From: a virus | Taxonomy: Duplodnaviria; Caudoviricetes | Strand: one strand, 5' to 3' | IMG/VR virus record: IMGVR_UViG_3300031992_000028 | Length of the DNA: 64,000 nucleotides | Shown: one piece after another, positions 413 through 36,039 of the stretch | Numbering within the stretch: the first letter of the stretch is position 1 | Layout of the letters: each line of letters begins with the position of its first letter | The notes under the pieces: generated by a model | Told to the model about the DNA's origin: nothing | Database searches by the model: none | Seen by the model: only the letters and a program-made list of their open reading frames with translations | Program-made: the position numbers and the translations under genes

Positions 413-1900
413 ATGAAAATTAAGAAATTAGTTGAATCCAAATTAATTGAAGCTGAAGATAAGATTGATACTACCGGTTCAGTTCAAGAAATTGCTGATG
501 ATATTCAAGATCAAGTTGATGATTTAACTGACGGTAAGCTTGAAATTTCTGATGAAGCTGCTGAAAAAGCTGCCGAAGATACTGCTGCTGTTGCAGATGT
601 TGTAAATGCAGACGAAGCAGCTATTGTCATTACTGAAGAAGACTGAAGTGATATTAAAATTACAAACAGACTTTATAGAACATTAGATAGAGCTTTTGCT
701 GCTGCTAAAACAAATATGGGCAAGCACAAAGTTAAAGCTGGTGCTAATGTCCTTGTCGAAGGTCTTCCAGGTTCAGGTAAAACTGCTATTGTTGAAGCTT
801 GGTGTAAAATGAATGGTTTAACACTTGTTGCTTTAAATGCTACTGACCCAAAGATTGAGTCTGCTATTAATGGTATTCCATTACGTAATATGTCTGTTGA
901 AGATTCTACAGAGCTTACATATGCTTATGCAGTTGATGATAGAAATTTAGGTTTATTAATTAATGAAAAACACCCAGATTTAGCAGGAAAGTGTGTTTTA
1001 TTCGTTGATGAATTAAACAGACAAAAAACAGAGCAATTAAGACGTCCATTTATGTCTCTCTTTAATGAAAAAAGAAATGCAAGTGGTTCATTAGATTTCT
1101 CTAAAAACTTATTATTCTGTGTTGTTGCTATCAACCCATTTGGCAATGACTTCCATGATAAGGGTGTTAGTGAACTAAATGCTGCTGAAAAAGACAGATT
1201 TGCTCGTCAACAGTATTCATTTGACTCCAATATTACTGATGCTATTCAATTCTGGACTTGGTATAGATCAAAAGAATTGTTAGATTTAGGAATTATTGCT
1301 CCAGGTAGTGCTGCATCTACAAATCATGGTGGTTGGGTTGGCCCAACAAAAAAATTAGATGAAGATGATTTAATGCATGCTAAGAGAATCCTCAAAGGTG
1401 CTGCATTAGCTCTTTATATTTTAAATAATGTTCAAAAATCAAGAGAAACTGAAGTATTTACTACAAGAAGAGATACCGATAGAGCTTATAGAAGTGGTGA
1501 TTATCGCTATACTACAAGCAGAGGTTTATTTGATGGTATTTTTGATAGCACATTTGGCGATGATAAATCACCAGTTAAAGACTTCTTAGACTGGGTTGAT
1601 GAAGAAAGCCATTACACACCAGAAAAAGTTAGAATGTTCCATGACATTTTAGATTCTTATATTATGGACGTTAAAGGATTATTTGCTGCTTATAACCTTG
1701 ACAAAACTCCAAAAGAAATTAAAGCAGAATTAGATGGAACTGCTGCTCCAAAAGCTGACACTACTGTTGATAACACTGATGATGAAATCGAAGATGATGA
1801 TGTCATGTTTGGTGCTGATGATATCAGTGGAGTTAGCAAAGCAAGCACAGATGATTTAAGTAAAGATGATGTTGATTCTATCATGGGTAGCTGGTTATAA
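413..1900 (+). CDS. MoxR-like AAA+ ATPase (495 aa, one TGA=Trp at 644-646)
   Basis: 413..646 and 716..1900 are in frame across TGA; Walker A GLPGSGKT, Walker B LFVDELNR, sensor AINP, Arg finger DRF; GGAG RBS. Confidence 0.85.
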
Positions 1901-1903
1901 TCT

Positions 1904-3052
1904 ATGAAAATTCTAAAAGAAGCAGGAAAAGAAATACAAACTGATACTGAAAAAAGGCTAAAAAAGAAACTTTTAGCCCTTTTGCGCAATGATGGAAAAG
2001 GTCATCATCATGCTAAGTATGCGGCAAGATTAGAAGACTTTATTTTAAAGATTGTTCCAAGATCTGAGGAACCTGATTTTGTTGCAGCTGTTAATTGAGA
2101 AGACATTACTATTTATATTAGCGATGGCTTTGTTACTAACGACCAAGATATTTTCTATCAGTTAAGTGTTTTAATGCGTCATGAATTAGCACACTATTTA
2201 TTACAGCATGACATTAGAATGGCTAAATATATTTCTGATAAATATGGCGATGAATATGCTAAGCATTTTAAATTAAGTAACTTATTACATCAAACCTGTA
2301 ATATTGTTATGGACCTTGAAATTTCTAACCAAGTCTATATGCAAAATGACGATAAAGATGTTGTTAGAAATCTTACAGATGGTGTTAGATTTTTACCTGG
2401 TTTAGTTACAGATGATATTGAAGCAAAATGAACAAAAATGACTCTTATCGAAATGTATGATGCAGTTGAAAAAGAGATAGATAGTATTAAACAAAGTATT
2501 ATTGCTAAATGAGACACTCTTGATATGTCAAAGCTTGTAAACCCATTTGATAAAAAATCATTTATTAAAAATCATATTATAAAAGAATTGAATGTATATA
2601 CTGATACAAAACACCCAACTAATTTCTTTGGTACTTTAGCCCAATTTATTAAGGGCAGAGCTTTGTATCATTTTGCTCCATTTGACACTCAAAATAGTAT
2701 TTGTATGATTAAATATTCATCTCTTCCAGACTTATATCAAGATATTATTGTAGATATTGCAGAAGAGTTTAATAGACAAAATGGTTATACAAGACAAGAA
2801 ATTCGTGATAGAGTAATTGAAATTGCTAAAACAAGTCCAGTTGAACCTTATACTTTAAAAGGTAAAAATGGCAATGAAGTTACTAAGATATATAATCCAG
2901 AAGAAAAATTCCTTGCAATTGACGCATTAAAAGCAGTCCTTCCTGAATTAGACGAATATGATGCTTGATATGCAAAAGTTCAAAAGGTTTTCTCTGATAA
3001 GAAATACACTGACGCCGATAGACAAAAAGTCTTGGATGCGCTTAATAAATAA
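1904..3052 (+). CDS. Putative zinc metallopeptidase (HEXXH; DUF2201-N-like partner of MoxR/VWA), 382 aa with TGA=Trp
   Basis: Fragments 1904, 2174 and 2525 join in frame through TGA to TAA 3050-3052; motif MRHELAHYLLQH and downstream N-I-x-x-D-L-E-I. Confidence 0.7.
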
Positions 3053-3063
3053 GGAGGCGTCAA

Positions 3064-5274
3064 ATGAAATCAATTAGAGTAAAATCGTATAATAAATTAA
3101 TGGAAAATGTTATTACTGAAGATAGCATTAAATTAGACGGTAATACAAGTGATTTTAAAGGAAAATTAAAAAAACGTATTACTGATGCTATTAGACTTGC
3201 TAAAGAATGTAGAATTGCTGCTAAAAAAGCAAGAGATGATGGTAATGATGAAGATGCTGATTGGCTAGAAAAACGTGCAGAAGATTATGAAACTGCTGCT
3301 AGAAACTGAAACCAAGATGCTCTTGATGATGAAGAAGATTCATCAGTTGACACTAAGCAAGATGATACTGATAAAGAGCCGAGCCAATCAGAAGTAGCAC
3401 AAGATGCTGCTAATGCTGCTAAGCGTGCTGCAAGAGATGCGCAAGATGCAGCTAATGAAGCTCAAAAAGCAGCAGAAAAATTAGCTGATACTGGACAAGA
3501 TAATAGTGCTGCTAAAGCTGCTGCAGAAAAAGCTCAAGAAAAAGCTAATGAAGCTAAACAAGCTGCACAAGAAGCCCAAGACCATGCAGACAAAGCAAGT
3601 AAAGCTGAAGCTGCTGGAGATAAAGATAAAGCTAAAGCGGAGGCCCAAGCTGCAGAAGATGCTCAAAAGAAAGCAGAGCAAGCCGCAAGTGAAGCTGGTG
3701 AAGCTGCTGAGTCTGCAAATCAAAAGACTGCTTCTGAAAGAGCACAGGATGCTGCAGATGCTGCTGAAGAAGCAGCTAAAAATGCACAAGCAAAAGCTGA
3801 TGCTGCTCAAAAGAAAGCTGATGACTTAAAAGCTGAAGGTAAAGACGCTAGTGAAGCTCAGGCCGAAGCTGATAAAGCCAAAGAAAAAGCAGAGCAAGCT
3901 AAGAAGGCCGCTGAAGAAGCTAAAAACCATGCTGAAAAAGCTGAAGAAGCTGAAAAGTCTGGTGATACAGATACAGCCAAATCTGAAGCTGATAAAGCCG
4001 AAGCTGCTGCTGAAAGTGCCAAACAATCTGCAAGCAGCTCATCAGATAGTAGTGAAGAGAGCTCTAGTGATTCAGAAGATAGCTCCGACTCTGATAATGA
4101 CTCTGATAATGACTCTGATAGCGATAGCTCTTCAAAATCTAAATCTAAGAGTAAAAGCAGTTCAAGCAGTAGTTCAAAATCTGATGCAAGCGAGTCTGAA
4201 GATGATTCTGATGATGACTCAGATGATGACGAGAGCCAATCTGATGATGCTCCAATTAAAGACCCATTTGCAGATGAAGAAGATATTCCAAGTATGCCAA
4301 GTATGGGACAACAAGGACAAGAGCCAAGAGACCCAACAGTAGATGAAATTATTAAACAATTAGGTAAACTTGAAGGCGAAGCAAAACGTGGAGCTATTGC
4401 AGGTTTAACTGATTTAATAAATAAAAATAAAAATGAAAGCTTAACTGAAGCTTTTAGTAAAGGTATTCGTGAATTCTCTGATGGAGAATGAGATGACCTA
4501 AATGATGAGACCATCGATAGAATTAATAAAGTTAAAAAAATTACTACTATTGATGATGTCGAAGGAAGAAAAGCAAAGGTTAAAAGTTGAGCAGATAATC
4601 AAGTTGCTCGTCAAGAATTATCTGATGAAGAAAGCCAAAATGCCCAACATGATGTACTACAACGCCGTGCCAAAGAACAAGAATTAGATAAATATAATAA
4701 CTTGTCTGGAATTAAAGACTTTGAAATTGATTTTGAAGGCTGTATAAGAGACCAAGTTGAGATGGTCATGCAAGATTATCTAACATATGATGAAATTAAC
4801 CCAGAATATGAGTTAGAAGATGTCATCATGAAAGCAGAAGTTCAAAGAATGATTCCAGATGAATCTATTCCAACAATTGCTGTGTTCTTTGATAAATCTG
4901 GCTCATGTTCCAGTGCTATTCCAACACTTAACAATGCTATTGCGACAGTTAAGAAAAAATATGTTGATACTGGCATGTGTAAATTAGATTTATATTATTT
5001 TGGTGATAGAGTAGCTTATAATGATGCTAATGCTTATGTTGGTGGTTCCACAAGAGCTTGGCCACACATTATTGAGACAATTAGAAAAGGTGATTATAAC
5101 AATGTTATTGTCATGTCTGATGATGATATTGGAGAACAAAATAATAATGGCGAAAGTTATACTGTTACTGGCTGCGTGTGGTGGCTTTGAGTTAATGGTG
5201 TTAGAGCACCAAAATGTGTAAAAGAGTTACGTGGTATGCAGCATAATTTTGAAGGCGAAATAGATTCATATTAA
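3064..5274 (+). CDS. VWA-domain protein with a long A/E/K-rich coiled coil and S/D-rich linker (736 aa with TGA=Trp)
   Basis: Fragments 3064, 4294 and 4702 in one frame; MIDAS FFDKSGS, GGST and VMSDDD near the C-terminus; ends TAA 5272-5274; GGAGG RBS. Confidence 0.8.
4087..4120 (+). repeat. 12-bp tandem repeat GACTCTGATAAT (about 2.8 copies) in the Ser/Asp-rich linker
   Basis: Directly visible; encodes DSDN repeats. Confidence 0.8.
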
Positions 5275-5286: not shown

Positions 5287-5970
5287 ATGGAAATTATGAA
5301 AGAAGAAAAATTAGCTGAAACAAAACTAACAGAATCAAAAGAAAAATTACCAATTTCTTTCTTAACAGAATTTGTTAGTAGAAGCTGAGATGATGTTGGT
5401 TACTTAAAAGAAACAATTAAATCTATTGGTGAATCTTTTAGCGGAACTAAAAAGGTTGAAGAATTACTCCAAGCTCTTGTTGATGCATATTTAGTTTGTA
5501 TTGGACAATTAGAAGCACATCTTCAAGCTAAAGATTATTTAGATACTGATATTGATAATAAACTAACTGAAGACGTTGATATTCATATTGAAGGCAATGA
5601 AGTTCGTATCGCTGATAATAGCGGTGAAGAAGTTGCTATTATTCCAGTTGACCCAGCTGCTGAAGAAGCACCTGCTGAATGTGATGGTCCAGAATGTGAC
5701 GTTCCTCCAGTTGAAGTTGAAATGCCAGTAGTTACTGAACCAGCTAAAGAGCCAATTGCTGCTGATGATGGCGAATTCAATACACCATTTGAATTTGATG
5801 TCCCAGAAGCTGATGGTGTTAGAAAATTTGAAAAACCAGAAGTTGCTGATTTCTTTGTAGACTTTGATGATCCAGTTGGTGAACCTGTCACTGAAAAAGA
5901 ATTATATGGTGATGGTGAAACCACAATCGAAGGCGAAAAGATTGACGCTGACGTTGAAGAAGAGGAATAA
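5287..5970 (+). CDS. Acidic hypothetical protein, probable head-internal protein (227 aa, one TGA)
   Basis: GGAG RBS, ATG 5287 in frame with the 5722 fragment; several L-x-E motifs (LAE, LTES, LTED). Confidence 0.7.
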
Positions 5971-6131: not shown

Positions 6132-9100
6132 ATGGCAAAAAAGATTGAAATTAATGAAAATTGGGAACCAGTTGAAGTAGAAGATTTAGATAATTTATTT
6201 ATCGTAGTTTTTAAACATGGCAGTTTTGACCAAGGTTATGTTGAAGCTTTTGATACAGATGATGTTTTAATGCAATCTGCTTATGATAGCTTAGCAAAAC
6301 AATATGATGACTGTGGTTGTGATGAGCTAACAAAAATTTACTTAATCAAAGTTCCAAATACTGAACAAACAGTAGATATGTGTAATACCGGCTTATTTAA
6401 TGGTAACTGCTGTGACCCACATGTTATTGAAGCTGCTAGAGACTTATTCAACAGAGCTGACTGTGAACATCTTTCTTGTTGGGAAGGCTGTGGTTTAACT
6501 GAAGCTAAAAAGAAGAAAAAACCATATTCATCTGCTTATTGTGGCTTTACTGATCCAGCCTTAAATATTAAGCATTTCAATAAATGCATGGGAACTGGTG
6601 GACTTCAAAACCCAGACCCAGCACATTTAGTTGTTGGCGATACTTTACCAAATGCACCAGTTGCAGATGCTGGGGCTAGTGATGCTGGAGCTTCATCTGG
6701 CGGTGAAGGTGGAGCTATGGGTGAAAGCCTAAATGAAGCTAAAGAAGAAAATTTAGAAGATAAAATTAGATCTGTCATTGCCCATAAAGAAACAGATGAT
6801 TGGCATGATGGAAAAGCTTATCTTTTTGAAATCAGTGATGAGTCTAAAAATTCTAATAATGGTGATATTGATCCATTTTGGGTTGAAAAGTTTGATGATG
6901 ATGAAGTTGACTTCAGTAAATTAAAAGTATATGATAGAACTCCGGAAGAAAAAGAAGATGGCAAATATATTGCTACCTTTATGATCTCTGGTGGTAAAAA
7001 TGGCTCTGGTGAGTGAACTGATTATTTAGGTCAACTTGCAAATGCTTTTAAAGCACTCAAAGAAAAGACAGGTGCTGAACCTTTACTTTATAAATTAGAC
7101 ACAGATATTTGTGATGATGTTTGGACAGGTTATGTTTTCTTATATGATCATGCAGATAATGTGAAAGAAAGCTTAAATGAAGATTTAATTGTTGTTGAAC
7201 CATTTGAAGCTAAAGAAAAAATTGAGGAAATTAAGAAACAAATTGAAGAAGCTGAAGATTGAAAAGTCCGCAAAAACTTATTAACTTTAATGAATATTTA
7301 TTTATTCCAAACAATTTATGATGCAGATCATCAAGATGAGACTGATTGCAATATTAATAAAGATGAATGAGATGAATATTCTAAATGGAGTACTGAACAA
7401 GGTGAAAAACTTGTTTCTGAACACCCAGAATTAGAAGTTGAAGAACAAGAAAGAGATGCTAAAATTGAAGCTTCTGTCGAAGACCAAAGCTCTGAAGAGG
7501 TTGAACAAACAGAAAGCTTAACTGAAGCTCATTTAGATTATTCTACACAATTATCTAAAATGAAACAATTAGAGGCTGGCACTCGTGGATTTAATGCAGC
7601 ACAGGCTAGCTTAGAAAAGATTTTATATAATTATGATATTTGTATTTCTCATAACTTGCCAAAAGCTAGAAAGGCAATGGAAGATGCTTTAAGAATGCAT
7701 GGTTGGGACCAATATATTAAACCAACTAAAAAACAAGTTAAAATTACAGACTATGATTACATTTTAGACCCAGGCTATGTTAATACTGCCTCAGTTAATA
7801 CAGTTTTTGCAAACAAAGATAATGCACAACAACTTATTAAAGATTATGGAAGTAACTTAGATGACTTACTTGTTATTTTAGTTATTGCTCTTGGTTTAAA
7901 GGAAGCAACATTAGCTGGATTAATTAAAGACCATATTATTAATAATTTTACAGTTACATTAACTGAATTAAAAGACTTCTTAAATAAATATTTTTCAAGC
8001 CCAGCTACTATAGCAGCTTTAAATCAAACTCTTCATGATTGCAGAGAAAGCTTAGTAGAAGATACTGGTTATTCACATAAATTAATGGATAAATTTGAAG
8101 TCCCACCACAAATCAAATTATTAGATCAAAAACAAGTAGAAGATTTTATTAAACAATTAAGCCCAGAAGAATTATTTAGAGTTGGTTATGCTACGCCTTT
8201 ATATTTCTATTCAGAGCTTGATGATAAATTTGATTTAGTCAAAGCAACTGAAATGGAAGGTTATACTGGACTAGATTATCGTGATGCTGTCGCAGACCAA
8301 TCTGTTGCAGATCATGCTGCGCGTATTGCAAATGCACAAAGACAAATTAATACATATGCTGATGTTTTAGATAAAAATCAAGGGCATAAATTAAATAAGA
8401 GTGGTGAAAGATTTAGTACTACTTATAGAGCAACTAATAAACTTGCCCTAAATCCAGAAAAATCTAATGAATATATTGAGTATGAGTATGAGCTAGATGA
8501 TGATGGAAATCCAAAATTAGATGCTCAAGGAAAACCAATTATTAAAAAAGATGCTGCTGGTCAAAGAATTGTTAAGACAAAAATAGATATGAATAAAATC
8601 TTATTCTACCCAAGAGTTGGCTCACAGCCAAATGTCCATTATTATATAGATTTCCACAATGGTCAAGGCTTTAAACCAATTAGACGAGAAGTATTAGTTG
8701 ATACCTTATATAAATTTATTATGGAAGTAGAAAAAGCTAATATGCTGGGTGTTAGCAAAGCTGATTTAATGTGGCTACAAAAGAATGGCTATGGAAATGT
8801 TAGGAAAGATGCCGAAGGTGCTATTCAGGCTTTCTACAATGCCCATGGCAAAGACATTCCAATTTGAGCTTATAGAAAAGCAGAAGAAGCAGGTGTAACT
8901 CCAGAAGAATATTATAAAGAGCACCCATTTAGCACACGTTGGTCAATGTCAGACTTTAAAAAGAAAGCTAAGAATTTATTTGATGATGATGCTGCCACTA
9001 TTATGGCACAAGATGCTGAAACAGTTAGTGGTCAAGAATTAGCTGCTGTAAACGGTATGAATAGAGATGTTTCTGCTAAAGAAGATAAACCACAAGTCAG

Positions 9101-9596
9101 AGCTTTATATTCTAACCAAGTTTATTTCTTAGAGGGCAAACCAGGTAAATTTGGTAATATGCTTCATGAAGGCTTAGAAGAAGAAATTGAATTAGATGAA
9201 GCAAAACGTTATGTTAAACGTTATTATGTCAGACCATTAAATATTTTCTGTGGAAATAAAGAAGACATTATTCAAGCTTTAATTAGAGCTGGAGACCAAA
9301 ACTGCTCTGTTTATTCATTAAAGAATTTAACAAACCACGAAGATGTTCACTTATTACAACCAAGCGACATTATCTATTATTGGGACGACCATGTTTTATA
9401 TGATAAGAATCATGTTCAAGTTATGGACTACGATTTATTTGTTAAACATGAAGAAGACCGTAAAAAAGTTGGTAATGTTGATGCTATGACTGATGCGGCT
9501 TTTAGTGATTTATATGATGATAGAGCTACAGAAGATGATTTAAAAGATAAAGAAGTTATTGCTAACTATAAGGCATTAAATACAATTAGTAGATAG
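6132..9596 (+). CDS. Large modular (polyprotein-like) hypothetical protein, 1154 aa with TGA=Trp
   Basis: Fragments 6132, 7560 and 8946 join in frame via TGA; ends TAG; modules separated by LTEA, ESLNEA, ESLNED, ESLTEA, ESLVED, LDEA. Confidence 0.75.
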
Positions 9597-9607: not shown

Positions 9608-10756
9608 ATGGAAAATTTTGAACAATATTTTAATGAAGATTTTGATTTAGAAGAGGCGTATGATTTTAAAGACCTTGCTGCAAAAAAAGCATTTAACTTT
9701 GAATGAAAGCCAAAATTTAATGAACTATTAGTCGGAAATAAGATTTGCTATGTAGTTGTTGAAAAAACTTCTACAAGTAGATTATTTTCAGTAGTTGAAA
9801 AAGTATTTGTTGGAGCCAATACTGGAGATATTTTTGTTAAAACTACAAAATTTGGCACAACACCATTAACAAGCTTTAAAGAATATGGTTATAAAAAACC
9901 TCACTTTGAAGCTGGTGATGAAGAAGCTACTAATGCATTATTAGCCTTAATTGCAGAATATAATGAAGCTTTCCATACTGCTGCAAAAACCTCTAATGGT
10001 GATACTCGTTCATTAGAATATTCAGAAGATAAGTTTGAAGACCAAGTTGGTGAAGGTCAAGACTTAAGTCAAAAAGCTTCAACTGATTTAAAAGACTGAT
10101 TAGCCCTTCATGTTACTAACGTTAAGTTTACTTTACCAGACTTAAACCTTATTCCAAATTCTGAAAAACGTGTCAAGGCTAAAAATGAATTAACCTTCAG
10201 TTTACTTGAAAAGCAATACCCTGGAATTACCTCTAATGCAAAGCATTTTGGGTGAGAAACAAAGACTTTGGACAATGCTATTTTTAGCTTTTGAGGCTTA
10301 ACTGGCTTTACATATTTTGATGTTCCATTTGAGGAATTCCCAGAAGAATTAAAAACACTAGTTATCGATGCTAAAGATAAAAGTTTAAAACGTGGACAAA
10401 CAAATGTTAGACCAAGCAAACCAACAGATAAAGTAATTAATAATATTTATTTTGCACATGCTATTATTGATATGTTTGATGGTGATTATACTTTCTGTGA
10501 TAGAAATATTGATGCCGAAGCAATTGCTGATAGTGATGATACATTTAAGCAAGATTTTGATAATATTAATGCTTATGGTGAAAAAGTTGAAAGTTTAAGA
10601 GAAGCTAAAGAAGAAATTTGCTGTATTTGTGGTGAACCAATAGAAGGCTATGGAAATAATCCTGAACCATACAAGCATGAAGGCAGATGTTGCGATGCTT
10701 GTAATGCTAAGTTTGTAATTCCAGCAAGATTAGCCGAATTAGATAACAAGGAATAA
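9608..10756 (+). CDS. Hypothetical protein with C-terminal Cys-rich Zn-finger module (382 aa with TGA=Trp)
   Basis: ATG 9608 in frame with the 10472 fragment; C-terminal CCICG...YGNNPEP...CCDACN after an ESLREA linker. Confidence 0.7.
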
Positions 10757-10764: not shown

Positions 10765-11706
10765 ATGGCTTTACCAGATAATTATGATATAAAACAATAT
10801 TTACCAACAGAGCAAGACTTTGCTGATGTTTTTGCTGCAAAACAAACTGGAAATTATTATAAGTTGCCTTATTACCCTCTTAGTAAAGATGAGCCATATT
10901 GTTACCCAACTATTAGAATTTACCTAGCTGCTATTCTATTAAAATGGGAAGAGCTTGGTAAGCAAATTGAAAATAACTTACTTGCAGGTAAATATGAATA
11001 TATTAATGGAACTAAACAATTAATTCCTTATTATACTCCTAAAGACCTAGCAATTATTAGATCATTTGCTGTTCAATATAAACAATATTATATTGGCGGT
11101 TATATGAAATATAAAGATGCTGGACAAGGTCTTGAATCTCCTGAAAAACTTACTCAGCAAGCTAGAGATGCCAGAAAAGGTGAAATTGAAGTAAAAATTA
11201 AAAATAGTAGTTCAGTGCTTCGTATTATTCCATATAGTATGAAGTATGGTAAAGATGACCCAAATAAAAGACAAGCTGGCGCAAAAATGCATATCTTTTT
11301 TGGAAAAGATTTAGGCGGGAAATATAATATTGTAATTAGAGGCAGTAATTTATATGGCTGTAATGAACACCCTACATATGATCAACCATATTTCTTGACT
11401 GAACAAGAAGCCAGAGATTTTATTGCTAACTTTAATCATAATAATATAAATACAAAAGTTACTATTGAAGATTGGCGCTTTGTAATTACGGATAGACCAA
11501 TGGACGATGGTTATGAAAGAGATGCTAATGGAAGTTACCTTATAGATGCTAAAGGTAACTATGTTAGAGCTTATTATATGCCAAGTCAAACTGAATTAAC
11601 AAAAGTTGATACTGTTTGTGGAATAGCCTATATGTTAAAAGAAGATAGAGATGCATATTGGGATAAAATCTATAAGGAAAGAGCAGAAAGAAAGGCTAAA
11701 AAATAA
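10765..11706 (+). CDS. Hypothetical protein (313 aa), member of a local paralog family
   Basis: Intact ORF; N- and C-terminal similarity to the 11706 gene. Confidence 0.75.
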   Translation: MALPDNYDIKQYLPTEQDFADVFAAKQTGNYYKLPYYPLSKDEPYCYPTIRIYLAAILLKWEELGKQIENNLLAGKYEYINGTKQLIPYYTPKDLAIIRSFAVQYKQYYIGGYMKYKDAGQGLESPEKLTQQARDARKGEIEVKIKNSSSVLRIIPYSMKYGKDDPNKRQAGAKMHIFFGKDLGGKYNIVIRGSNLYGCNEHPTYDQPYFLTEQEARDFIANFNHNNINTKVTIEDWRFVITDRPMDDGYERDANGSYLIDAKGNYVRAYYMPSQTELTKVDTVCGIAYMLKEDRDAYWDKIYKERAERKAKK

Positions 11707-14042
11707 TGACTGGCTTTGATATTAATCTATGCATTCCAACAGAAGAAGACTTTAGAGAAGTAGCCGAAGCAAAAGTTACTAATGATAAAAGTAGGGCCCT
11801 CGGTGGTTTTTCTTGTTTAGATGATACCAATGCTCCTTATTATTACCTATTAGTTCGTAGATTTTTTGCTTGTATGCTTTTAAAATGAACTGAAGCAGCA
11901 AAAGCCTGTGAAAATTTACTAATTAGCACCAAAGATAGCACTTATGATAAAGATGCAATTAAGCAGCTTATCGATTTAGTCAGAAGCTACAAAGATAAAT
12001 TTGTTGATTCTTATAATAAATATAAAGGGTCGCAAGATATTCAAGCACCTACTATAACTTTTGGTAAAAAGAAAAATCATGAAGTTACACCTACAGACCG
12101 AGTAAGTGCTCGTGCAGGAGAAATTAAAATCACAACACATGGCAAAACAACTAATTTTTACCGAATTGTTGCTTATGATATGCGTTATGGTGGCAGTGGT
12201 GCTAGACGTGGTATCGTATTTGGTAAAAAAGAAGGTAATTTATATACTATAAGAATTATTGGTAATGACCAAATGAAGGGCAACCAATTATATAATTCAG
12301 TATTTTTTAAATCAATAAATGAAGCTAAAATATTTATTGCAAATATTAATTATAATAATATAAATACTGCGTATGAGCTTGATAGCTTTAGATATTGTAT
12401 TTCAGACGAACCAATTAGCTCTCAGCATTATGATTGATCTGCCGGCAGCGGTGGTAAATGACTAACTGCTGAAGTAGATAATTTAAATGATGCAGTTCAA
12501 GTAAATACTATGTGTGGAAAAGCTTATATATTAAAACGAAGTGAATATTGCAAAGAAGCATTGGAGATAAAAAATATGAATGAAGCAGTTGAAAAACATG
12601 ACACATTAAACCCAAAACTTTTTGAAAATAATAAGTTAAAGGCTGAAGTAAGACAAAAAGCCCAAGATATTATTAATGAATTTTTAAAAATTTTAGCCGA
12701 AGAAGAAGTTAAAATTAATATTAGAGATGTTATCTTAACTGGCTCAAATGCAAGCTATAATTATACAAAAGACAGTGATGTTGATTTACATGTAATTGCT
12801 GAAACAAAATCACTTAATGACCAAGCTGACCTATATGCTAAGTTATATAGAGCTTATGGTAGAATTTTTGGAAATAAGTTTGAAATATCTTTCTATGGAA
12901 TTCCTGTTGAAATTTATGTAGAAACAGAAGCTGACCCAGTTGTAAGTAATGGTATTTACTCTGTTATGTATGATAAATGGGTAAAAGAGCCAAGTGCTGT
13001 TGCAATTCCTGAAATTGACCAAAAAGCTATTGATGCTGCATCTAAACCTTGAATTGATGAAGCTAAGGAATTAATTAAAGAAGTTGATGATAATATTGCA
13101 GATGGTGAAGAAAAAATTGATGATTATATTACAAGACTTTATGAGCTTCGTCAAAAGGGTATTTATAGCTCTGTTGGAAATGAATATTCTACTGAAAATT
13201 TAGTCTTTAAAGAAGTTAGAAATGCAGGTTTATTAGATAAGCTTAAAAAATTAAAAAATGTTATTATTTCTAAAAAATTATCTTTAGAAGAAGGCATTAA
13301 GTATTTAGATGATAACCATGAATTTAAAGACTATGGAACTGGCGATGCTCATGAAACAGATGTAATTGATATTCATAAAGCTAGCACATTCTCAACACAA
13401 GATTTATTAGATGGATCAGTTGATGCTGCTTATGATGGTGTTATTTATGAAATAGTTGAAATGACACCAACTCAATACTTTGAATTATGCTCTAAAATTC
13501 AGGGTATGAAACCAGATGAAATTATTGATTTTATTGGTGCTGATGAGAGACAACTTGCTCATATTAAAGATGTTATTCTAAAATATGGTAAGAAACTTCC
13601 ACTTCCTTACGTCAGTTTCAGTTCAGTTGATGAAGTTAGCGGCCAAGAAGGCAGACATAGAATGTATGCTCTTGGTGAAATGTTCGGTTGGGACGAAGAC
13701 TTCCCAGTTATGCTTATTCAAGATGCAAGCTCTAAGAAAACATTAGGTGAGCTCTTAAATGAATCTATTACAGAAGACTTCTATTTAGACGAAAAAACAA
13801 GACGTAATTATATTACAAAAATTACTCAATTAATTCACAATCAACCAGTTATTCAACAAAATGGTTTATTTGAAATTCATAATATTAAAGAAGATGAATA
13901 TCAAGCAGTTTTAAATGCTTTGAGACGTCAACCTTGAATTGATTATGTTCATGCTACAGCAGGCAAATTTGATTTTAACAAAATATCTTATCAAGGTATG
14001 CCAAGTAGATTATATACAATTTCTGGTAAAATTAAAATCTAA
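11706..14042 (+). CDS. Multidomain protein: paralog domain + Pol-beta-type nucleotidyltransferase + ParB/Srx-like domain + small C-terminal module (778 aa with TGA=Trp; possible internal start at 12576)
   Basis: Fragments 11706, 12180, 12510 and 13461 in one frame to TAA 14040-14042; LTGSNASYNY..SDVDLH (GS, DxD), PVEIYVE, ENLVFKEVR; QEGRHR; GGAG plus ATG at 12576. Confidence 0.75.
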
Positions 14043-20878: not shown

Positions 20879-22687
20879 ATGGACGCTAATAAAAACAGAA
20901 AAGTTTTAGAAGCATTGCAAATGCAACCATTATCTGAAGAAGAAAAGTCAGCTCGTCATATTCTTGGTAGACTTTATGGACCTATTGCGACCTGTAAAGA
21001 AAAAACAAGAAATGGTCGTGGCTATAATAAAGAGCTTTGGGAAAAAGCCCTTAGCGATGAAATCTTCAAAGAAAAACTTGCTACAAAAAGTTTATTCTTA
21101 GAGTTAGGCCACCCAGCTGATAGAGAAGAAACAGACATGACTTGTGTTTGTGCCTGTATCCCAGAAATGCCTAAAATTGTCAATGATGATTTATATGCTT
21201 ATGTTGATATCTTAGACACACCTAATGGCAAATTATTAAAAACACTTTGTGATTACGGCTTTGTTCCTGGCATCTCTTCAAGAGGTTCCGGTGATATTAT
21301 GGCCAACGATGAAGTTGACCCTGAAACATTCTTCTTAGAAACATGGGACATCGTTCAACTTCCTGCTGTTAAAAAAGCAAGACTTGCAATGTGTGAAAGT
21401 TTTGATGGCAAAAAACCATTAAAAGCAGTATTACAAGAAAGCTATGATGCTGCTAATGACGAAGATAAAAAAGTAATGAAAGAATCGTTAGATAACTTAG
21501 ATATTAAATTAGACGAACCTATTGAAGAGGAAATTCCTATTGAAGATCCAGAAGCTCCAATTGAAGAAACATTAGTTGAAGCTGAAGAGACTGTTGAGGA
21601 ACCTGTTGAAGAAACTCCAGTTGAAGAAACTGAAGAAACTCCTGCAGAAGAAACTGAGACTCCTGTTGAAGAAGAGCCAAAAGTAGAAGAAGTTGCTTGG
21701 ACAGTTGGAGACTTCAAAAATAGTTTAAATGATTATGATGAAAGCCGTTCACTTGAATGGAAACCAATTATAATTGATAATGTTGAATACCCTATTACTG
21801 GCATTGTATTTGATGACAGTGAAGAAGGAAAACTTATTACAGAAGTTAGTTATACTCTTCCTAAAGAAGAGAATACTATAAATGATGAAGAAGCGGTTGC
21901 TGAAGAGCCTGCTGAAAGTGAGCCAGAAGTTTCTACTGAAGAAGCTGGTGATGCCGGAGATGATGAAGTAATTGAAAGCTTAAAAGAAGCAGTTCGTCAG
22001 AAAGACCTACTTGAAAGTGAAGTCCGAGATCTTAAAAATCAAAAGACAGTCAGTGATGCCGAAGTACAAGGTTTGAAAGAAGAGCTTGAGAAATACAAGG
22101 GCGGCTTCATAAGAGTAAGTGAACTTGCATCTAAATCAACAAGTCTCACTAAGGAAAATAAAGTCCTTAAAGAGCAATTAAATCTTAAAGATACTGAAAT
22201 CAAAGATTTAAAACAAAAAGTCGAAAACCACATCAGTTTAACAGAAAGTGTTAATGCTGAAAAAGCAACAGTTAAAGATTTAACTGAAAAATTAGCTAAA
22301 GTTCAAGCTGAAGCTGAAGAAACAGAAAAATCATTAACTGAAGAGCTTGAAGCCAGCAAAAAGAAAGCTCAAGATAGAACAAATCTTGCGAAATCTTATA
22401 AAGCTAAATATGATGCTGTTGTAGAGCGCTATGTTGCTAATAAAGCAAAGATGCTTGGTGTTAGACCTCAAGATATTACTAGCAAGCTTGTCGAGAACTA
22501 CTCGCTAGATGATATCGACAATGTTTGCAATGAGCTACTTAATGAAAGTAGACCTCAATTCGGTTTGGTTGGTGGTAATCCAAGAGTAAGAGTCAATGAG
22601 TCAGTCAAATCTGAAAAGAAAGTGATTGATCCAGACAATGGCTACGAAATTGACGATGACTTGCTAATTCTAGCCGGATTGAAATAA
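20879..22687 (+). CDS. Prohead protease (T4 gp21-like) fused to acidic/coiled-coil scaffold
   Basis: NGRGY, ELGHP, GISSRGSG and WDIV..PA motifs; C-terminal coiled coil with many L-x-E sites. Confidence 0.9.
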   Translation: MDANKNRKVLEALQMQPLSEEEKSARHILGRLYGPIATCKEKTRNGRGYNKELWEKALSDEIFKEKLATKSLFLELGHPADREETDMTCVCACIPEMPKIVNDDLYAYVDILDTPNGKLLKTLCDYGFVPGISSRGSGDIMANDEVDPETFFLETWDIVQLPAVKKARLAMCESFDGKKPLKAVLQESYDAANDEDKKVMKESLDNLDIKLDEPIEEEIPIEDPEAPIEETLVEAEETVEEPVEETPVEETEETPAEETETPVEEEPKVEEVAWTVGDFKNSLNDYDESRSLEWKPIIIDNVEYPITGIVFDDSEEGKLITEVSYTLPKEENTINDEEAVAEEPAESEPEVSTEEAGDAGDDEVIESLKEAVRQKDLLESEVRDLKNQKTVSDAEVQGLKEELEKYKGGFIRVSELASKSTSLTKENKVLKEQLNLKDTEIKDLKQKVENHISLTESVNAEKATVKDLTEKLAKVQAEAEETEKSLTEELEASKKKAQDRTNLAKSYKAKYDAVVERYVANKAKMLGVRPQDITSKLVENYSLDDIDNVCNELLNESRPQFGLVGGNPRVRVNESVKSEKKVIDPDNGYEIDDDLLILAGLK

Positions 22688-22726
22688 GCTGACAACTTAC
22701 TGTCAATAATTAAATAGGAGAAAACA

Positions 22727-24085
22727 ATGAGACAAAATTTACTTGAGACTTATAGTCGTCAATTAAAGGTTGCTGAAGCCTACGTTGCCAAAAACTTCGA
22801 TGGCAAACAAATTTCAGCAAATACTCAACTCACTACTGCTGTCTTATTAGACAACACAAACCGTTGGTTAACAGAAGCCATGAGCACTGAAGCCACACAA
22901 CGTTCTGACTTAGGCGATTGGAAGAAATTCTGCTTAAATTTAACAAATATTGCTGTTCCATCATTAATCGCTAACGACCTCGTTATCGTTCACCCAATGA
23001 CAAGCTACAGCGGCTCCGTTGCTTACTTAAGCTACGTCAGCAAAACTGATAAGGGTGGCATTAAGAAAGGCTTCGAATTCAACGGTGTCTTCGGTCTTGG
23101 TGCTTCCTCACCAGAAAGAACTGCCTTCTCTTCACAAGTTATTGTTGAAAAAATCGGATCTGATGGAAAAACTTCCTTAGAACCAGTTGAATGCGGTAAA
23201 TTTGTTGTTAAAGAAGAAGGAAAAGAAGTTGCATATGATGCTAAAGTTATCGCTAAAGATGGTACAGTTTCTTACAAGAAAGCTTCCGAAATGCACGATT
23301 TACCAGAAGGTGTCAGAGTTGCATACTTCTCAAATGAATTCCAAATGGAACATGTTCCTGCAGAAGACATTCCAACAATTGGTCCAAAAATGGAAAGAAT
23401 CGCTCTTGTCGCTGAGCCAAGACGTATCGCTGTCCGTTACGATCAAATCACTGCTTTCCAAGCTAAAACTGACTATGGCTTCTCACTCGACAAACAAATC
23501 GCTGAGCAAGCTTGCGGTGAATTAGCTTACGAAATCGACACTGAAATCGTCGAAATGTTAGCTGAAGGCGCCAAAGAAGGCGACGTCAAGTTAACTTGGG
23601 ACAGAACTCTTCCTGTCGGTGTTTCTAAATTTGAACACTACAATGGTTTCTTAGAAGTCATTGAAGAAGCAAAAGCTGAAATCTACCGCAGAACTGGTAA
23701 ATTCCATCCTAACTACATGGTCATCGCTGCTGATGTCCTCCCAGTCTTACGTTTCGTTAATGGTTTCACAGCTGTTAAGAATGCTAAGATGAATGGTCCT
23801 TACAAAGTTGGTGAATTAGATGGTCTTAACATCTACGTCTCCCCAGCTCTTGGCAAAGGCGAATTCTTCCTTGGTTTAAACGGTTCCGATATGATGAGCT
23901 CTGCTGGTGTCTACGCACCTTACATGGCTATCGTCCCAACCCAATTACTTGGAACACCAGACGGTGGTTTAGCACAAGGCTTCTCAACATGGTATGCCAA
24001 AGCATTACTCAATAAGAATCTTCTTATTGCTGGTGAAGTTACTGGTGTTGCCAACGACTACAGAAAAATCGTCGTTGAGAAATAA
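22727..24085 (+). CDS. Major capsid protein, T4 gp23-like
   Basis: VHPMTSYSG, LAYEIDTEI, VYAPYM motifs; distinct high-expression codon usage; follows protease. Confidence 0.92.
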   Translation: MRQNLLETYSRQLKVAEAYVAKNFDGKQISANTQLTTAVLLDNTNRWLTEAMSTEATQRSDLGDWKKFCLNLTNIAVPSLIANDLVIVHPMTSYSGSVAYLSYVSKTDKGGIKKGFEFNGVFGLGASSPERTAFSSQVIVEKIGSDGKTSLEPVECGKFVVKEEGKEVAYDAKVIAKDGTVSYKKASEMHDLPEGVRVAYFSNEFQMEHVPAEDIPTIGPKMERIALVAEPRRIAVRYDQITAFQAKTDYGFSLDKQIAEQACGELAYEIDTEIVEMLAEGAKEGDVKLTWDRTLPVGVSKFEHYNGFLEVIEEAKAEIYRRTGKFHPNYMVIAADVLPVLRFVNGFTAVKNAKMNGPYKVGELDGLNIYVSPALGKGEFFLGLNGSDMMSSAGVYAPYMAIVPTQLLGTPDGGLAQGFSTWYAKALLNKNLLIAGEVTGVANDYRKIVVEK

Positions 24086-26181: not shown

Positions 26182-26204
26182 GTAAAGGAATTATTTATTT
26201 TTGT

Positions 26205-28082: not shown

Positions 28083-28093
28083 GGAGAATTATC

Positions 28094-29857: not shown

Positions 29858-32800
29858 ATGGAAAAAGAATCCGTAAAGAAATTTGATTTAGAAGCTGCTT
29901 TTAAAGCTTTAGATGAGATTGAAATTCCTCAAACTAAGGGCATCAAAGCTAATAGAGTCGATTTGAAAGAAAGATTCAATCATAAATCTGCCCATGAAAC
30001 ATTAATTGAAGATTATTATGATGTTTCTAGCACAGAAGATTTAGAAGAAGCTAAAGAAGAAAGAGAAGGAGAAGTCGCGCAAGCTAAATTAGCACGTATT
30101 GAAAAAATTGTTGATTTAGATGCTGAGACTGCTGATGACCTTTTACCATCTTACGTTGGCAAAGTTATTATGCAATGTCCTCAATGTATGACTCTCTTTT
30201 ATAAAAATCCAGAAGATATTGAGCACTCAGAAGAAAACCCAGATGTCGTTAACATTAATGAAGTTTGTCAACACTGTGGAAACACTTCAGGTTATACTTT
30301 AATTGGTAAAGTTGACAGTGTTTCTGAAGAAGAAGCTGATAAGTATGACGAAACTTCTGTAGAAGAAAATGAGCTTGACCTTGACTTTGAGGAACCAACT
30401 GAAGAAGTTGATGCTGAAGGAACAGGTGAAGGCGCTGAAGAAATGTCTGGTGATGAAGAGTTATCTGAGGACGAATTAAAAGAGTTAGAGCTTGACTTAG
30501 AAGATATCCCAGAAGAAGAGCCAGAAGATGAAAAGAAAGAAGAAAGCTTAAACCTTTCAACCGAAACTTCTGAAAATGAAACTGAACATAAGTCTGAAAA
30601 TTTAACACTTAATGAAGAAGCTACAGATGAAAGTTTAAATAATTCAGAAGTCCAAAAAGAAGCTGAAGAAGGCTCTGAACTTAAAACAGAAAATGAATCT
30701 GAAAATCTTACCTTAAATGAAGATGCTTTTGATTACAATAATATTCCATCTTGGAATGATGATGAAATCCTCATTAAAAACGATGCAGGTCTTCCAAGTG
30801 AAAAATTACCAGTAATTAATTATTTCTTGGATTGTTCTGGAAGCTGGCAAATGAAAGGCTGGCTACAAGAAATTGATGAAATGCGTCGATTAAAAGATAG
30901 TAATACTGCAATAGTAAAAGTATATTTTGTTTCAGATCATATTTATAATAACCCAAATGATGCCCGTAAGGGTGGACACTCTACTGGATTTAAAGAAGTT
31001 GTTGATTATGCAAAAGCTCATCCAGAAGAAAAATGTATTATTCGCACTGATGATGATTATAAAACACAAGGTGGCGAAGAGCTAGAAAAACTTCCAAATG
31101 TCGAGCTCAGACTCCACACTATCGGTGAAAGCTTAACCGAAGAAGTTGATAAAGATTTAGATGCAAAATTAAAAGCACATAATGATTATATTGCTTATTT
31201 ACAACAAATGATTAAGCAAGAAGAAGAAGCTTTAAAGAAAGCAGAAAATGATGAAATCAAAGCTGCTATTCAAAGAAGATTAGATGCTTTTACACAAGAT
31301 TTACATGATGCACTTCCAGATGTTCTTAAAGATGAACCAGAAGCTAATGAAGTAGCTACTGAAGAACCTGTTGAAGAAATGCCGACTGAGGCTCAGGCAG
31401 AAGAAGAGCCAAAAACTGATGAACCAGCTGAAGAAGAAGCTCCTGTTGAAGAACAATTAACAGAAGAAGCTGCTGAAGAAGAAAAACCAGCTGAAGGTAA
31501 TGAAGTTGACTATGTTGAATACAAGCACTCATATTGCCATGCTTTAGCACCAAAATTAAAAGCTATTAACTATTTAGTTAATGTTAAAAAAGTTGAACCT
31601 AAAATCTTAAAAGGTTATATTCTTAAATTATTAAAAGATGCTGATGTTAAGTGGACTGAAAAAGAAAAAGAATTTAAGAAAAATATTGAAACTAAAGAAG
31701 ATAATTATGATATCTTAAACTATGTTAAAAATAGTATTGAAAAAGCTAAAACTATTAAAGTCAAAGTTGATGAAAATGGTGAATTAGTTGAAGGCTTAAA
31801 TGAAGGCTTTGAAGGCTGTTTATATGAAGTCTTAACTGAAAGCTTAAATAAGTCTGAAGAAACAAGCGAACATAAAACTGAAAATGAATCTGAAAATTTA
31901 ACACTTAATGAAGGTGCTGAAGCCGAAATAGATTCTATTATTGCTTCATGGGACTTTAATGAAAGTTTAACAGAAGAAGGTAATTTAGATAAATTGCTCG
32001 ATAGCGACGAATTCAAAACACCAGTTTCTGAAGAAGAAATTGATGCTGCAAGAAAAGAAGCTGCAGAAGAAAGTTTAGAAGAATGTAATAAACCAGAGTT
32101 ATCTGAAGGTGTCACTGATCCTGAAATTGATGCCATTATTAATTCTTGGGGAGATGTTTCTGAAGCTTGTGAAGGACATGACTGCGAAGAAGGTTATACT
32201 GGCAACCCAGCTGAACGCACAACTCATTTAGAATACACAGATGATGACCCAACTGATGGTAAAGCTGTCCTTCCAGATAATATTGAAAAACAATTAACTG
32301 AAGGCGAAGAATGTGCAGATGGCGAATGTGAAAAGCCGTTAGAGGAATGCGGTGAAAAACCTCTTAAAGAAGAAGACGAAGTTCCAGCTGAAGAAGCTCC
32401 AGCAGAAGAACCTACTGAAGAAGAATCGAAAGAAGAGCTTCCAGAAGTAGAATTTACAACCTCAGAAGTTAAAGAAGTTGCTGATAATGTCGCTGAAAAA
32501 ATGATTGACAATATTGGAACCAAAGGTTTAACTATTGATACAGAAGAGTGAAAAGCTGATGCTGAAGAAGTTGTTGCTGATGCTGTTGAAGAAAAAATTG
32601 AAGCTGAAGAAGAAGTTGAAGCTGAAGAAGAGCCAGCTGAAACTGAAGAAGATGTGGTTGAAGAATCACTTACAGAAGAAGTTTTAGAGGAAGGCCCAAT
32701 TAATGCAATTAAAAATGCACTTGCAAATAAAACATTAAATAAATCATTCAGTAAATTTATTGTTAAATGCTATACAAAAGCTGCCCCAAATAAACCAGAA

Positions 32801-33673
32801 ACAAAAGAATTTGGTAAATTACAAGATGCAGAAGACTATGCAAAAGCTTTTACTCAAAACCCAAGTAACAAAGAAGCTTGGATTTGGGGTGATGAAGTTA
32901 AAAAAGAAAATGTGCTTACTGGTTGGGCCAATGGTAAAAGATCAGCTGATTTAAGACAAGGAACTGCAAAAGAATTTGATGCTATTGCTAAATCAGAAAA
33001 AGGTCTTGAAAAAGCTGGTAAAAAAGCTTTAGACGCTGAACCAGAAAAACCTATTACACCTCCAGAAGAAACAGAAGAAGCTCCAGTTAAAGAAGCACCA
33101 GTTGAGGAAACTCCAAAACCTGAAGAAGAAAAACCAGAGGAAACTTCCACAGATGCTTCAAAAAAATTAAAAGTTGCAGATATACTTGCTGCATTAGAAG
33201 CTAAATACCCTGGCAAGAAAAATAATAAGATTGTTGCAGCTATGCTAAAAAATGCTGGTCTTGCAGAAAGTTTAGATTCTACAGAAGCTGTTTCACTTTG
33301 TGAAGCTGTTGATAACCTAGATAGTATTGAGGACTTAAATGAAGAAGCTTTTAATACTAAAATAAGTGAATTCTTAACAGAAGTTTATTCTAATGTTAAA
33401 TCATTTACTGCTACTGAATGCCAACTAATTGAAGAAAAATTAGTTATTACTGGAAAAATTGGTTTTAATAGCGGTAATGAAAAATTAACAGTATTTGAAT
33501 TTTTACCAAATTATGGAGATGGACATTTATTCTTTGAAGGCTATAATAAAGACTTCTCAGAAGATAATGCATTTACATTAAATTATTCAATTAATGAATC
33601 AAAAGAGCTTATTACTGAAAGTTTTGGTTATAAGTATAAAATTAATGAAACATTAGTTGAAGGCTTAAAATAA
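29858..33673 (+). CDS. Very large acidic modular protein with Zn ribbon and internal VWA-like domain, probable head-internal polyprotein (1271 aa, one TGA at 32549-32551)
   Basis: 29858..32551 and 32654..33673 in frame; CPQC...CQHC; FLDCSGSW...RTDDD; over 15 L-x-E/ESLTE motifs. Confidence 0.75.
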
Positions 33674-33687: not shown

Positions 33688-33720
33688 GGGCTGGTTAAAT
33701 AGATAGCCAGCCCTTGTTTT
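33688..33720 (+). terminator. Hairpin, possible weak terminator
   Basis: GGGCTGG...CCAGCCC followed by TTGTTTT. Confidence 0.55.
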
Positions 33721-33739
33721 CAAAGAAAGGAGTATAAAT

Positions 33740-34249
33740 ATGGCTGAAAATAGAAAAGACTATGGTGTCTTAATAACGCCTGAAATAAAACTACATCGCC
33801 AATATTTCAAAGAAATGGTAAAACTTCTTGGAATTAATTGTATTTATAAAGCTCCTTTACCTGGAAAACACTTTGATACTCATGGCGATTTAGACGCTGA
33901 CTACACACCAGGAGAAGTTGTAGGCGTAATTTTTCAAGAGCACCCAGATCAAAAAACATTAAAGAAGATGGGCTGAGTTGCTGAGCTTCAAGAAGGCTCA
34001 TCAATTATTCATGTCCCATATGACTTACCACATATTCAAGTTGGTGCATTATTTATCATTCCAAGCGGCCTTGATCAAGCACAGGGTCGTGTATTTCGTG
34101 TTATTTCTATGCAAAATATTATGGTTTACCCAGCTTCTATTGCTTGTGAAATTGCTCCTGAATACTTTGATACTGTAGAGCCAGTATTAACAAGAGACTT
34201 TGAAAATAATAATTTTACCATGCTTATAGATCATGAGGAGGATGACTAA
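33740..34249 (+). CDS. Probable neck/head-closure protein, T4 gp14-like (169 aa, one TGA)
   Basis: Read-through of TGA 33974-33976 to TAA 34247-34249; EMVKLLGINCIY; position. Confidence 0.55.
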
Positions 34250-36039
34250 TGACTAAATTTAAGTTAAAAGAATACTCCAGATTTATGCTATCAGAAAAAT
34301 TTATTTTAAATGAAGCTAAATATACTAAAGCAGACATACAAAATATTATCTCAGAATATACAAAAGCAAATCAAGACTTTAAAAATATTTATTCTAGCAT
34401 AGAAGAAAAAATAAAGTCTGAGCTTGCAAAAGCGGAAGAGGCGACTGCAACTGATAAAGATGTAGAAGAATTAAATGAGTTAGCTGATAATATTACAAGT
34501 GGAAATATTACTAATATTACAGATGTTAAAGCAAAAACAAATCAATATCTTACAAAACTTGATGCACGACTCAAAGCTACTCCTGGTTATGATGAAGAAA
34601 AGACACCAAACATTGCTAAAGTAATAAATAAATTAAATAGCTATGCAAATGAAGCAAGTAGAGGTGCTAAAGAAGATGAGGAGACAGAAGATCGCATCAT
34701 TAATCTTATAAAAGAGCTTACTCCATTACTTAACAATATCTTTGCAAAAGATACATCAAAAAATACTCTTTTACAACAAATTATTGATAATCTTACTGTT
34801 TTAAATAATACTAACTTAGATGGTTTTATTAAACAGCTAAAAAGTGATGCTGTTGAAGAATTTATAAAAATAAAAGATGCTTTTACAGGCATTACACAAT
34901 ATTTAACAGAGCTTAATGCAAAAGAAACTATTACTGATGAAGATATTACTGCTCTAAATACTGCAGCAGCTGATGCAGCTAAAACTGTAACTGATAATAT
35001 TGAAAGAATAAAATCAATATTAGAATTAAGAGACGATGCCAAAGCAGCAAAACAAGACGCAGATGAAAATCATCTTGTAGATTTATTAAGAGATACTCAA
35101 AGTGACCCTGCTGCATTTAAAGAAGCTTTAATATCAATTCTTAATATTGCATTTAAAGATGACCAAGCTTTAGTTGAAGCAGCTTTAAAACTAAATGGCG
35201 ATGGCGCCATTGCAGAAGAAATTTTACACTTAGGTGCACTTCCAACAAAAAACCCATTTTTATATTTTATTTATACTAATAAGCAACTAATTACAGGTGG
35301 CAGCATAGATGCTAAAAAATATGCAGTTTTGCATAATAGATATATACAATCTAACGCCAACGATATTTTTGCAGCAGCAGACCTTAGGGGCACTGGACAA
35401 TTAAAAAATAGTGACGTAATTTTTAGTGAATCATTTTATCAATCTGGCACTTCAAACATGGAAAAATATCTTGATATAAGAGAGCAAGTTATGAAGTTAT
35501 TTGATAATAATACTCCATTTAAAAATCAAATTGTGGGTAAAAAATATGCAGGTAAAATTGAAAACTTTTTTAGTGATTTAGTTTATACCAGTGGCAAGTT
35601 ATTTGATAAAGCACAAGGCAGCACTGGAAGCTCTCTTACAAAAACAGTTAAAGATATTGCTCAAATTTCAAATGACCTTAAACGCTGTTTTGATGAAGAC
35701 GCTCTAAAGAGCACAGCAGCAACTGCAGTTATTTCTGTAGATAAAAAGATTGTTACACAGTGAGCTTCACAACTTGGTAACAATAAAGATAGACTTGCAA
35801 AATTAATCTTATTTATCGCTACTAAATACTTAAGCGCTAATGGCGATGCAAAAGCAGTTCAAGACACAATTAATAAATATGAAGAGATTAAAGGAAAATC
35901 TCTTGAAGCAGGTGATATTGTACCATTTACTAACCTAGTTGGTAAAGCTGATATTACTGACAAAAATATTGTAAATATTATTGAGTTAATTGCATCTGCT
36001 GGTGAATTTGTAGGAAGTAAATCAGAAGAGGAAAAATAA
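34249..36039 (+). CDS. Helical hypothetical protein, possible head-internal/ejection protein (596 aa, one TGA)
   Basis: Extends through TGA 35761-35763 to TAA 36037-36039; N-terminus LKE..LSE..ILNEA. Confidence 0.65.

Follow-up and report, generated by a model that had tools for sequence, protein, structure and literature searches.

The window, 64 kb at the start of a 99.8-kb virus record (IMG/VR IMGVR_UViG_3300031992_000028; completeness estimate 46%), comes from an uncultured rumen phage with a T4-type head and encodes long proteins in which unrelated modules are joined by short linkers of a hydrophobic-x-Glu type. In their tight form, the linkers read E-S-L-x-E or L-(T/N)-E and are often doubled as L-x-E-S-L-x-E. 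These linkers are very probably sites of the prohead protease in proteins that are incorporated into the head. The joints follow the rule by which the T4-type head protease cuts; the modules are therefore probably taken up into the capsid and separated inside it, and we favor, with less assurance, a fuller explanation in which the released modules are also retained and delivered. An earlier note, made from the DNA alone, had proposed such a system for positions 413 to 36,039; the motifs that it quoted are all present, including that of the capsid protein (22865-22882). By sequence, the motif is found at the predicted capsid maturation site, throughout the scaffold, at the ends of basic leaders, and at the borders between independently folding modules.

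Linker motif and prohead protease

Genes are named here by their first coordinate, and those named in this way lie on the plus strand. Reading TGA as Trp (table 4), as the earlier note had done, raised the coding cover from 68% to 95%. A search with the capsid protein returned 68 related loci, several of them on contigs of 200 to 237 kb, and long stretches of 13 related records were used for comparison. Motif counts were set against 1000 whole-protein shuffles and 30-residue local shuffles, both of which gave the same result. The pattern ES[LIMFV]xE was observed 11 times in 11 named genes (1.2 expected, p ≤ 0.001) and was absent from 10,749 residues of neck, tail, baseplate, and fibre proteins. 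The pattern [LIM][TN]E[AEDSG] occurred 31 times in the named genes (4.8 expected), 6 times in the portal, scaffold, and capsid (1.3 expected), and 3 times in the tail genes (5.1 expected). The proposed enrichment in head and cargo proteins over tail proteins therefore holds for the tight form. The loose form [LIM]xE, with 134 matches against 108 in the named genes and 112 against 96 in the tail genes, is close to composition and was dropped as evidence.

The relatives provide a fairer test of enrichment because the tight patterns were picked after inspection of this window. Among 97 proteins of the pre-terminase cluster from 13 genomes, the window genome included, 158 tight motifs were observed versus 29 expected. 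The corresponding numbers were 72 versus 14 for orthologues of 29858, 67 versus 12 for 15 orthologous protease-scaffolds, and 62 versus 46 (1.3-fold) for tail and terminase homologues. By pattern, a short basic leader that ends in the motif opens 47 of the 97 cluster proteins, against 10.9 expected; for tail homologues the count is 14 of 173, against 13.8. The loose pattern, only 1.2-fold enriched and alike in tail genes, would suit the view that acidic linker composition yields such peptides by chance. However, for the pre-terminase cluster, 29858, and the scaffold of the window genome and 12 relatives, the tight motif exceeds the local shuffles 5- to 9-fold, and it recurs in the relatives at defined positions; the local shuffles refute the composition view, to which we give hardly any credence.

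The candidate processing enzyme is a gp21-type prohead protease fused to a motif-rich acidic coiled-coil scaffold (20879..22687; Pfam Peptidase_S77, 5e-11; match to 5JBL). Alignment to T4 gp21 placed His78 and Ser134 at the catalytic positions, which are thus intact in this gp21-like protease; both residues correspond to Ala in chain 5JBL, which we take to be an inactivated construct. The gp23-type major capsid protein (22727..24085; Pfam Gp23; match to T4 gp23) has a predicted maturation site of the same form after Glu50, at 22865-22882. This site lies 20 residues before the region aligned to mature gp23, compared with 31 in mature gp23. It is kept in all 15 sequences shown, with one site type in all relatives, and length variation begins right after it. 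The T4-type portal (18186..20150; Pfam Portal_T4) carries an L-(N/D)-E site (18684-18692) that is conserved and borders a variable loop, and an alignment of 14 portals often showed the site on both sides of this loop. The portal, S77 protease, and gp23-type capsid are all T4-like by Pfam. T4 gp21 cuts after L/I-x-E (PMC9026906, PMC12991175), and in SPN3US the portal is known to be processed by the phage's protease (PMC10052503). By analogy, we infer that the 20879 protease would cut the linkers. A predicted complex between the protease domain and a linker peptide of 33 residues scored 0.02 and was not used as evidence.

Modules between the linkers and their exchange

The earlier note had assigned cassette-like polyproteins to about 15 kb upstream of the terminase and to 29858 and 34249. 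Shuffled polyproteins are in fact only those of 6132, 9608, 11706, 14149, and the middle of 29858; the claim does not extend to 413, 1904, and 3064, to 34249, which has a leader only, or to 10765, which has no motif. The 6132 product (6132..9596) comprises about seven modules with linkers at 6495-6503, 6723-6737, 7167-7181, 7512-7526, 8046-8060, and 9159-9197; the modules include a helical one (7527-8045), an SH3/WYL-like barrel with inserts (8061-9158), and a conserved one (9198-9593). The 9608 product (9608..10756) consists of a leader, a variable module, a linker (10589-10603), and a conserved four-Cys Zn-finger-like module (10604-10753), which is joined to the 6132 orthologue in most relatives. 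In 11706..14042, an N-terminal module is followed by a linker (12576-12584), a Pol-beta-type nucleotidyltransferase (12585-13289; Pfam Polbeta and NTP_transf_2), a linker (13281-13295), a ParB-motif module (13293-13763), a double linker (13755-13775), and a small C-terminal module (13776-14039). The 14149 product (14149..16026) contains an N-terminal module (14149-14652), a mobile 43-residue module (14668-14796), a module with an ADP-ribosyltransferase (ART) fold (14797-15192), a double linker (15184-15204), and a SWIM-type Zn module (15205-16023). The very acidic 29858 product (29858..33673; 20% Glu), encoded between the two neck genes, has conserved N- and C-terminal domains; its middle varies and holds cassettes bounded by the motif, one of them a VWA-like module (30722-31141).

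Comparison with the relatives indicated that modules are gained, lost, and moved at the linkers, as had been proposed. Homology breakpoints, called without the motif, lay within 10 residues of a motif in 16 of 40 cases (5.2 expected); none of 14 tail-gene breakpoints did so, which is a weak control since those genes have few motifs. Both ends of clean indels between window proteins and close relatives were at a motif in 12 of 24 cases (0.8 expected), and 22 of the 48 ends were (7.1 expected); several of the others had a looser version of that linker. The helical module of 6132 resides inside the nucleotidyltransferase gene in three relatives and stands alone in a fourth, and the 43-residue module of 14149 precedes the nucleotidyltransferase in another relative. 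The VWA-like cassette is found in 29858 orthologues or upstream of the AAA domain, and the ParB module of 11706 is cleanly missing in L153 and L175 and occurs alone with a leader elsewhere. Modules that stand alone elsewhere bear the same motif as a short N-terminal leader; where the ParB-motif module comes first in the protein, an L/I/M-x-E leader was found in 43 of 60 homologues (8.8 expected).

Among clusters at 50% identity, 119 distant homologues share the start of the SWIM-type module of 14149, and the sequence that precedes it can be as long as 1,100 residues. In 115 of the 119, Leu is present at P3, which is outside the aligned query, after unrelated upstream modules; about half of the 119 have a second L/I-x-E five residues upstream. 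The upstream parts contain ART-PolyVal in 14 of 60 homologues and also NUDIX, SprT, and nucleotidyltransferase domains. Inteins were seen in 8 of 60 SWIM-module homologues. Gene borders and linkers interchange between relatives, and the linker inside a polyprotein is the same as the leader of the module when it stands alone, as would be expected if the linkers were relics of fused leader-bearing genes whose products act whole, internal cutting being incidental or absent. Relics should decay, yet the basic part of the leader is lost here and L-x-E is kept and often doubled, as in the 115 SWIM-module homologues; we therefore consider the relic explanation improbable.

Structure models agreed with the claim that linkers lie between folded domains and not inside them. 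The model of residues 458 to 1154 of the 6132 product showed confident domains at model residues 10 to 181 and 187 to 555. The gaps at 1 to 9 and 182 to 186 (predicted local distance difference test, pLDDT, <50) are two linkers, and confidence drops again at a third, after the barrel. Both ends of the large module join in one SH3/WYL-like barrel (weak WYL-type fold matches, Z 4.3-4.8), and it therefore fits a single unit between linkers. No fold was assigned to this model because it had no Foldseek match and a best Z of 5.8. In the model of P0002, a homologue of 14149, the site is in a coil between two domains. The modules between linkers are compact and without internal tight motifs.

Enzyme identity, as judged from sequence and models, is supported only for the nucleotidyltransferase and the ART fold. 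The best fold matches of the first domain of P0002 were ADP-ribosyltransferases (TreX, Z 6.0, root-mean-square deviation 3.5, 95 residues), with PltA, ParT, Scabin, and Arr ranked lower; the protein-atlas lead for homologue P0116 was the Arr family (0.88). These scores are middling but agree with one another. The statements on ART and SWIM rest on these homologues at about 56 to 70% identity, and ART-PolyVal was seen in homologues only. The SWIM identity is a database lead, and no clear fold match was obtained for this domain. The ParB-like label derives from a Q-E-G-x-H-R motif that does not vary and from a single weak Pfam score, and PDB profile searches of the module found nothing. Pfam and PHROG scans were blank for most modules. 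Among the proposed effectors (nucleotidyltransferase, ParB-like, ART-like, SWIM, Zn finger, VWA, and AAA), the first and third are thus supported in their identity, the ParB-like one stands by its motif only, the AAA and VWA proteins belong to a conserved gene set, and SWIM is a conserved gene of cultured relatives.

The DNA of the linkers probably also acts as a short near-repeat at which crossovers exchange modules, to judge from its sequence. The linker serine is encoded by AGC at 9 of 15 sites in the window genome, compared with a background of 17 to 24%, and at 46% versus 24% across the relatives. A 263-residue block is missing in L163, and the junction falls inside an 18-base stretch with 16 of 18 bases identical between two window linkers. 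These observations would fit a motif that is mainly a DNA repeat for recombination, with the peptide as its by-product. However, each of the six serine codons occurs in the linkers, as do several for Leu and for Glu, and 12 of the 15 linker 15-mers differ. Given this synonymous variation, and given that the peptide is also found at the capsid site and portal loop and in the scaffold and leaders, none of which calls for recombination, the motif does not have recombination as its sole cause; an origin mainly as DNA repeat is thus very unlikely.

In the explanation that we favor instead, the motif is recognized by the gp21-type prohead protease that the phage itself encodes, which would cut after Glu. 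T4 IPI-III and Alt are targeted to the capsid, trimmed by gp21, and ejected (PMC9026906, PMC9958956, PMC12991175). By extension from T4, leader- and linker-bearing proteins would join the prohead core and be cut by the protease during maturation, and the acidic spacers and scaffold would be digested and cleared. The compact modules (nucleotidyltransferase, ART-fold, ParB-motif, Zn-binding, and several without assigned function) would stay in the head as separate small proteins, exit with the DNA, and have an early role in the host. In this way, many modules could be loaded through a single entry signal.

Neighboring genes, genetic code, and relatives

The first three genes form a conserved set, and the relatives have them in the same order; they bear leaders or propeptides and are not shuffled cassettes. 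The MoxR-like AAA+ ATPase (413..1900; Pfam AAA, AAA_3, AAA_5) has a basic leader ending in L-x-E (443-451) and then a variable acidic N-terminal segment; homology in the relatives starts at about residue 78. The HExxH metallopeptidase-like protein (1904..3052; H93-E94-x-x-H97) has a six-residue leader with its site at 1913-1921, is a single unit in all relatives, and had no Pfam match. The 3064 product (3064..5274), which also had no Pfam match, contains a leader, a long low-complexity segment of Ala, Ser, and acidic residues, a linker (4435-4449), and a VWA-like domain (4450-5271) with DxSxS at about residue 610; its homology breakpoint is at residue 458. The region before the VWA-like domain (3064-4434) includes about 300 residues of Ala/Lys/Glu/Asp-rich and Ser/Asp-rich low complexity, the length of which differs among relatives.

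The acidic, leader-bearing product of 5287..5970 (17.5% Glu) is probably prohead-core-like. The 29858 protein is very acidic and occupies the place of SP15_037, the acidic core-like gene of phage SP-15; it is therefore best seen as a core- or scaffold-like carrier that also bears cassettes. Both proteins had been counted as effector cargo, which overstates the case for 5287 and for most of 29858. All relatives have the SWIM-type module, and four cultured phages carry it as a separate gene next to the neck gene; it may be an anchor rather than an effector. The 10765 product (10765..11706) is a stand-alone paralogue, without a motif, of the N-terminal module of 11706 (32% identity to residues 4 to 277). 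The two units, 10765-11706 and 11706-12575, are tandem paralogues, and this type of module heads polyproteins in several relatives without a leader motif; it is therefore a candidate, and may be an alternative, entry or anchor domain. The hypervariable 34249 protein (34249..36039) has an N-terminal leader (34306-34314), which several positional counterparts share at their starts; it had no homologue by BLAST and no supported internal linker.

These neighbors bear on an account in which the proteins enter the prohead and are cut but serve assembly as core, scaffold, or chaperone, the pieces being cleared or inert and no effectors being delivered. The acidity of 5287 and 29858 resembles that of T4 gp22, gp67, and gp68, and the position of 29858 and that of the SWIM-type gene beside the neck gene of cultured phages point the same way. 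A MoxR AAA with a metallopeptidase-vWA protein has been proposed as an assembly chaperone in jumbo phages (PMC7824862), and T4 proteins that are cut many times are cleared (PMC9026906). However, the compact modules include a nucleotidyltransferase and an ART fold, their homologues bear ART-PolyVal, NUDIX, and SprT domains, and fast gain and loss of modules suits host conflict better. We regard a pure assembly role as unlikely.

The phage is a myovirus of the approximately 220-kb class in which TGA encodes Trp. At positions of TGA, code-11 relatives have Trp in 116 of 212 cases, with Phe (27) as the runner-up. A tRNA with anticodon UCA, previously described for recoded gut phages (bioRxiv 10.1101/2021.08.26.457843), is present in two recoded relatives, whose close relatives use code 11. 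This 75-base tRNA of L090 (G004 11081-11155) and L108 (G007), labeled SeC by ARAGORN, is probably a TGA-reading tRNA. In-frame TGA is absent from the protease-scaffold and capsid genes (20879-24085; 4 TGG each) and from most small genes beyond 84 kb of the record, and it is frequent in tail-fibre and glycosyltransferase genes.

The closest cultured phages by capsid (~30% identity) are the Bacillus phages SP-15 and HSE3 and the Listeria phage LIS04. Between the capsid and neck genes lies an island (24185-29035) whose content varies among relatives; here it comprises a GIY-YIG protein, an N6 methyltransferase, a fusion of FrhB-like and polysaccharide pyruvyl transferase domains, and a GT8 glycosyltransferase. 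In L080-L081 (G012 54020-62138), about nine similar genes are arrayed between the capsid and neck genes and look, by eye, like BspA-type leucine-rich repeats. Beyond the window, at 69444-72695 on its scale, a 1,083-residue acidic protein contains four ES-L-x-E linkers, and its Cys-rich modules recur in 6132 and 29858 orthologues of relatives. Long insertions, probably inteins or introns, interrupt the terminase match in L129 (G001), L134-L135 (G002), and G020 and leave it in two or three pieces, and a phage-borne tmRNA adjoins tRNA-Pro in L139 (G002 about 209640-210045).

Proposed cargo delivery and known systems

Several points weigh against the favored explanation. Multiply cut proteins of T4, SPN3US, and phiKZ are cleared core proteins or propeptides, and the retained products arise by terminal trimming (PMC9026906, PMC10052503). 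A clear basic leader is absent at the N-termini of 6132, 11706, 14149, and 29858 themselves, most modules have no assigned function, the last module of 6132 (F3, 9198-9593) was not confidently folded in the model, and L-x-E also occurs by chance inside folded domains. The relatives are not independent samples, and the phage and its host are uncultured.

The system resembles T4 in having a capsid of the gp23 family and a protease of the gp21 family, L/I-x-E sites with short basic leaders that end in them, and an ADP-ribosyltransferase fold among the probable cargo. However, T4 trims termini and obtains one product per gene, whereas the sites here separate many folded, reshuffled modules in one chain. 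In phiKZ and SPN3US, too, many head proteins including the portal are cut after x-x-Glu at redundant, clustered sites (PMC10052503), but the rule is A/S-x-E, and the 14 mapped sites of SPN3US remove terminal propeptides, not internal modules (PMC10052503). Polyvalent proteins (Iyer et al. 2017, PMC5512222) likewise join many unrelated shuffled domains, defined as two to fifteen per chain, a range also seen here, and their delivery with DNA has been proposed. The repertoires may overlap as well, given the nucleotidyltransferase by Pfam, the ParB-like module by motif, and ART-PolyVal (14 of 60) and NUDIX domains in homologues. By contrast, their processing is ascribed to their own zincin metallopeptidase and no linker code has been described (PMC5512222); here, a MuF anchor had no match in the Pfam or PHROG scans, and the HExxH protein has a gene of its own (1904). 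In group 2.2 jumbo phages (PMC7824862), a MoxR AAA+ protein is paired with a metallopeptidase-vWA protein; the probable counterpart here (413, 1904, and 3064) is next to the head genes, with the peptidase and VWA in separate genes and a motif-bearing leader or propeptide in each gene. Thornevirus SP-15, LIS04, and Bacillus phage HSE3 share the protease-scaffold fusion, the neck gene order, and a stand-alone SWIM-type gene, which has an N-terminal L-F-E in SP-15 and LIS04; in the parts of their genomes that were read, no cluster of polyproteins precedes the terminase. The system is thus a member of neither the T4 capsid-targeting/gp21 system nor the polyvalent proteins as defined; it works like the first and shares its architecture with the second. 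We found no paper on protease-linked phage cargo polyproteins in a search outside which most subscription papers lay.

Phage proteins that are injected with the DNA are the first tools against host defenses, but in uncultured phages there is no sequence rule by which to find them. Should the linker be a protease site, it would provide a rule for such proteins and split hundreds of long hypothetical proteins into testable units. It would also supply the cleavage mechanism missing from the polyvalent-protein model and show in tailed phages the polyprotein processing familiar from RNA viruses; T4-type heads may then load several proteins from one chain. More tentatively, large T4-like gut phages might run a general polyprotein cargo system, in which head-loaded chains are cut into an injected enzyme kit, the linker is both cut site and DNA crossover, and the kit is re-assorted cassette by cassette. 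If this is true, the motif would be a sequence tag for injected counter-defense proteins in metagenomes.

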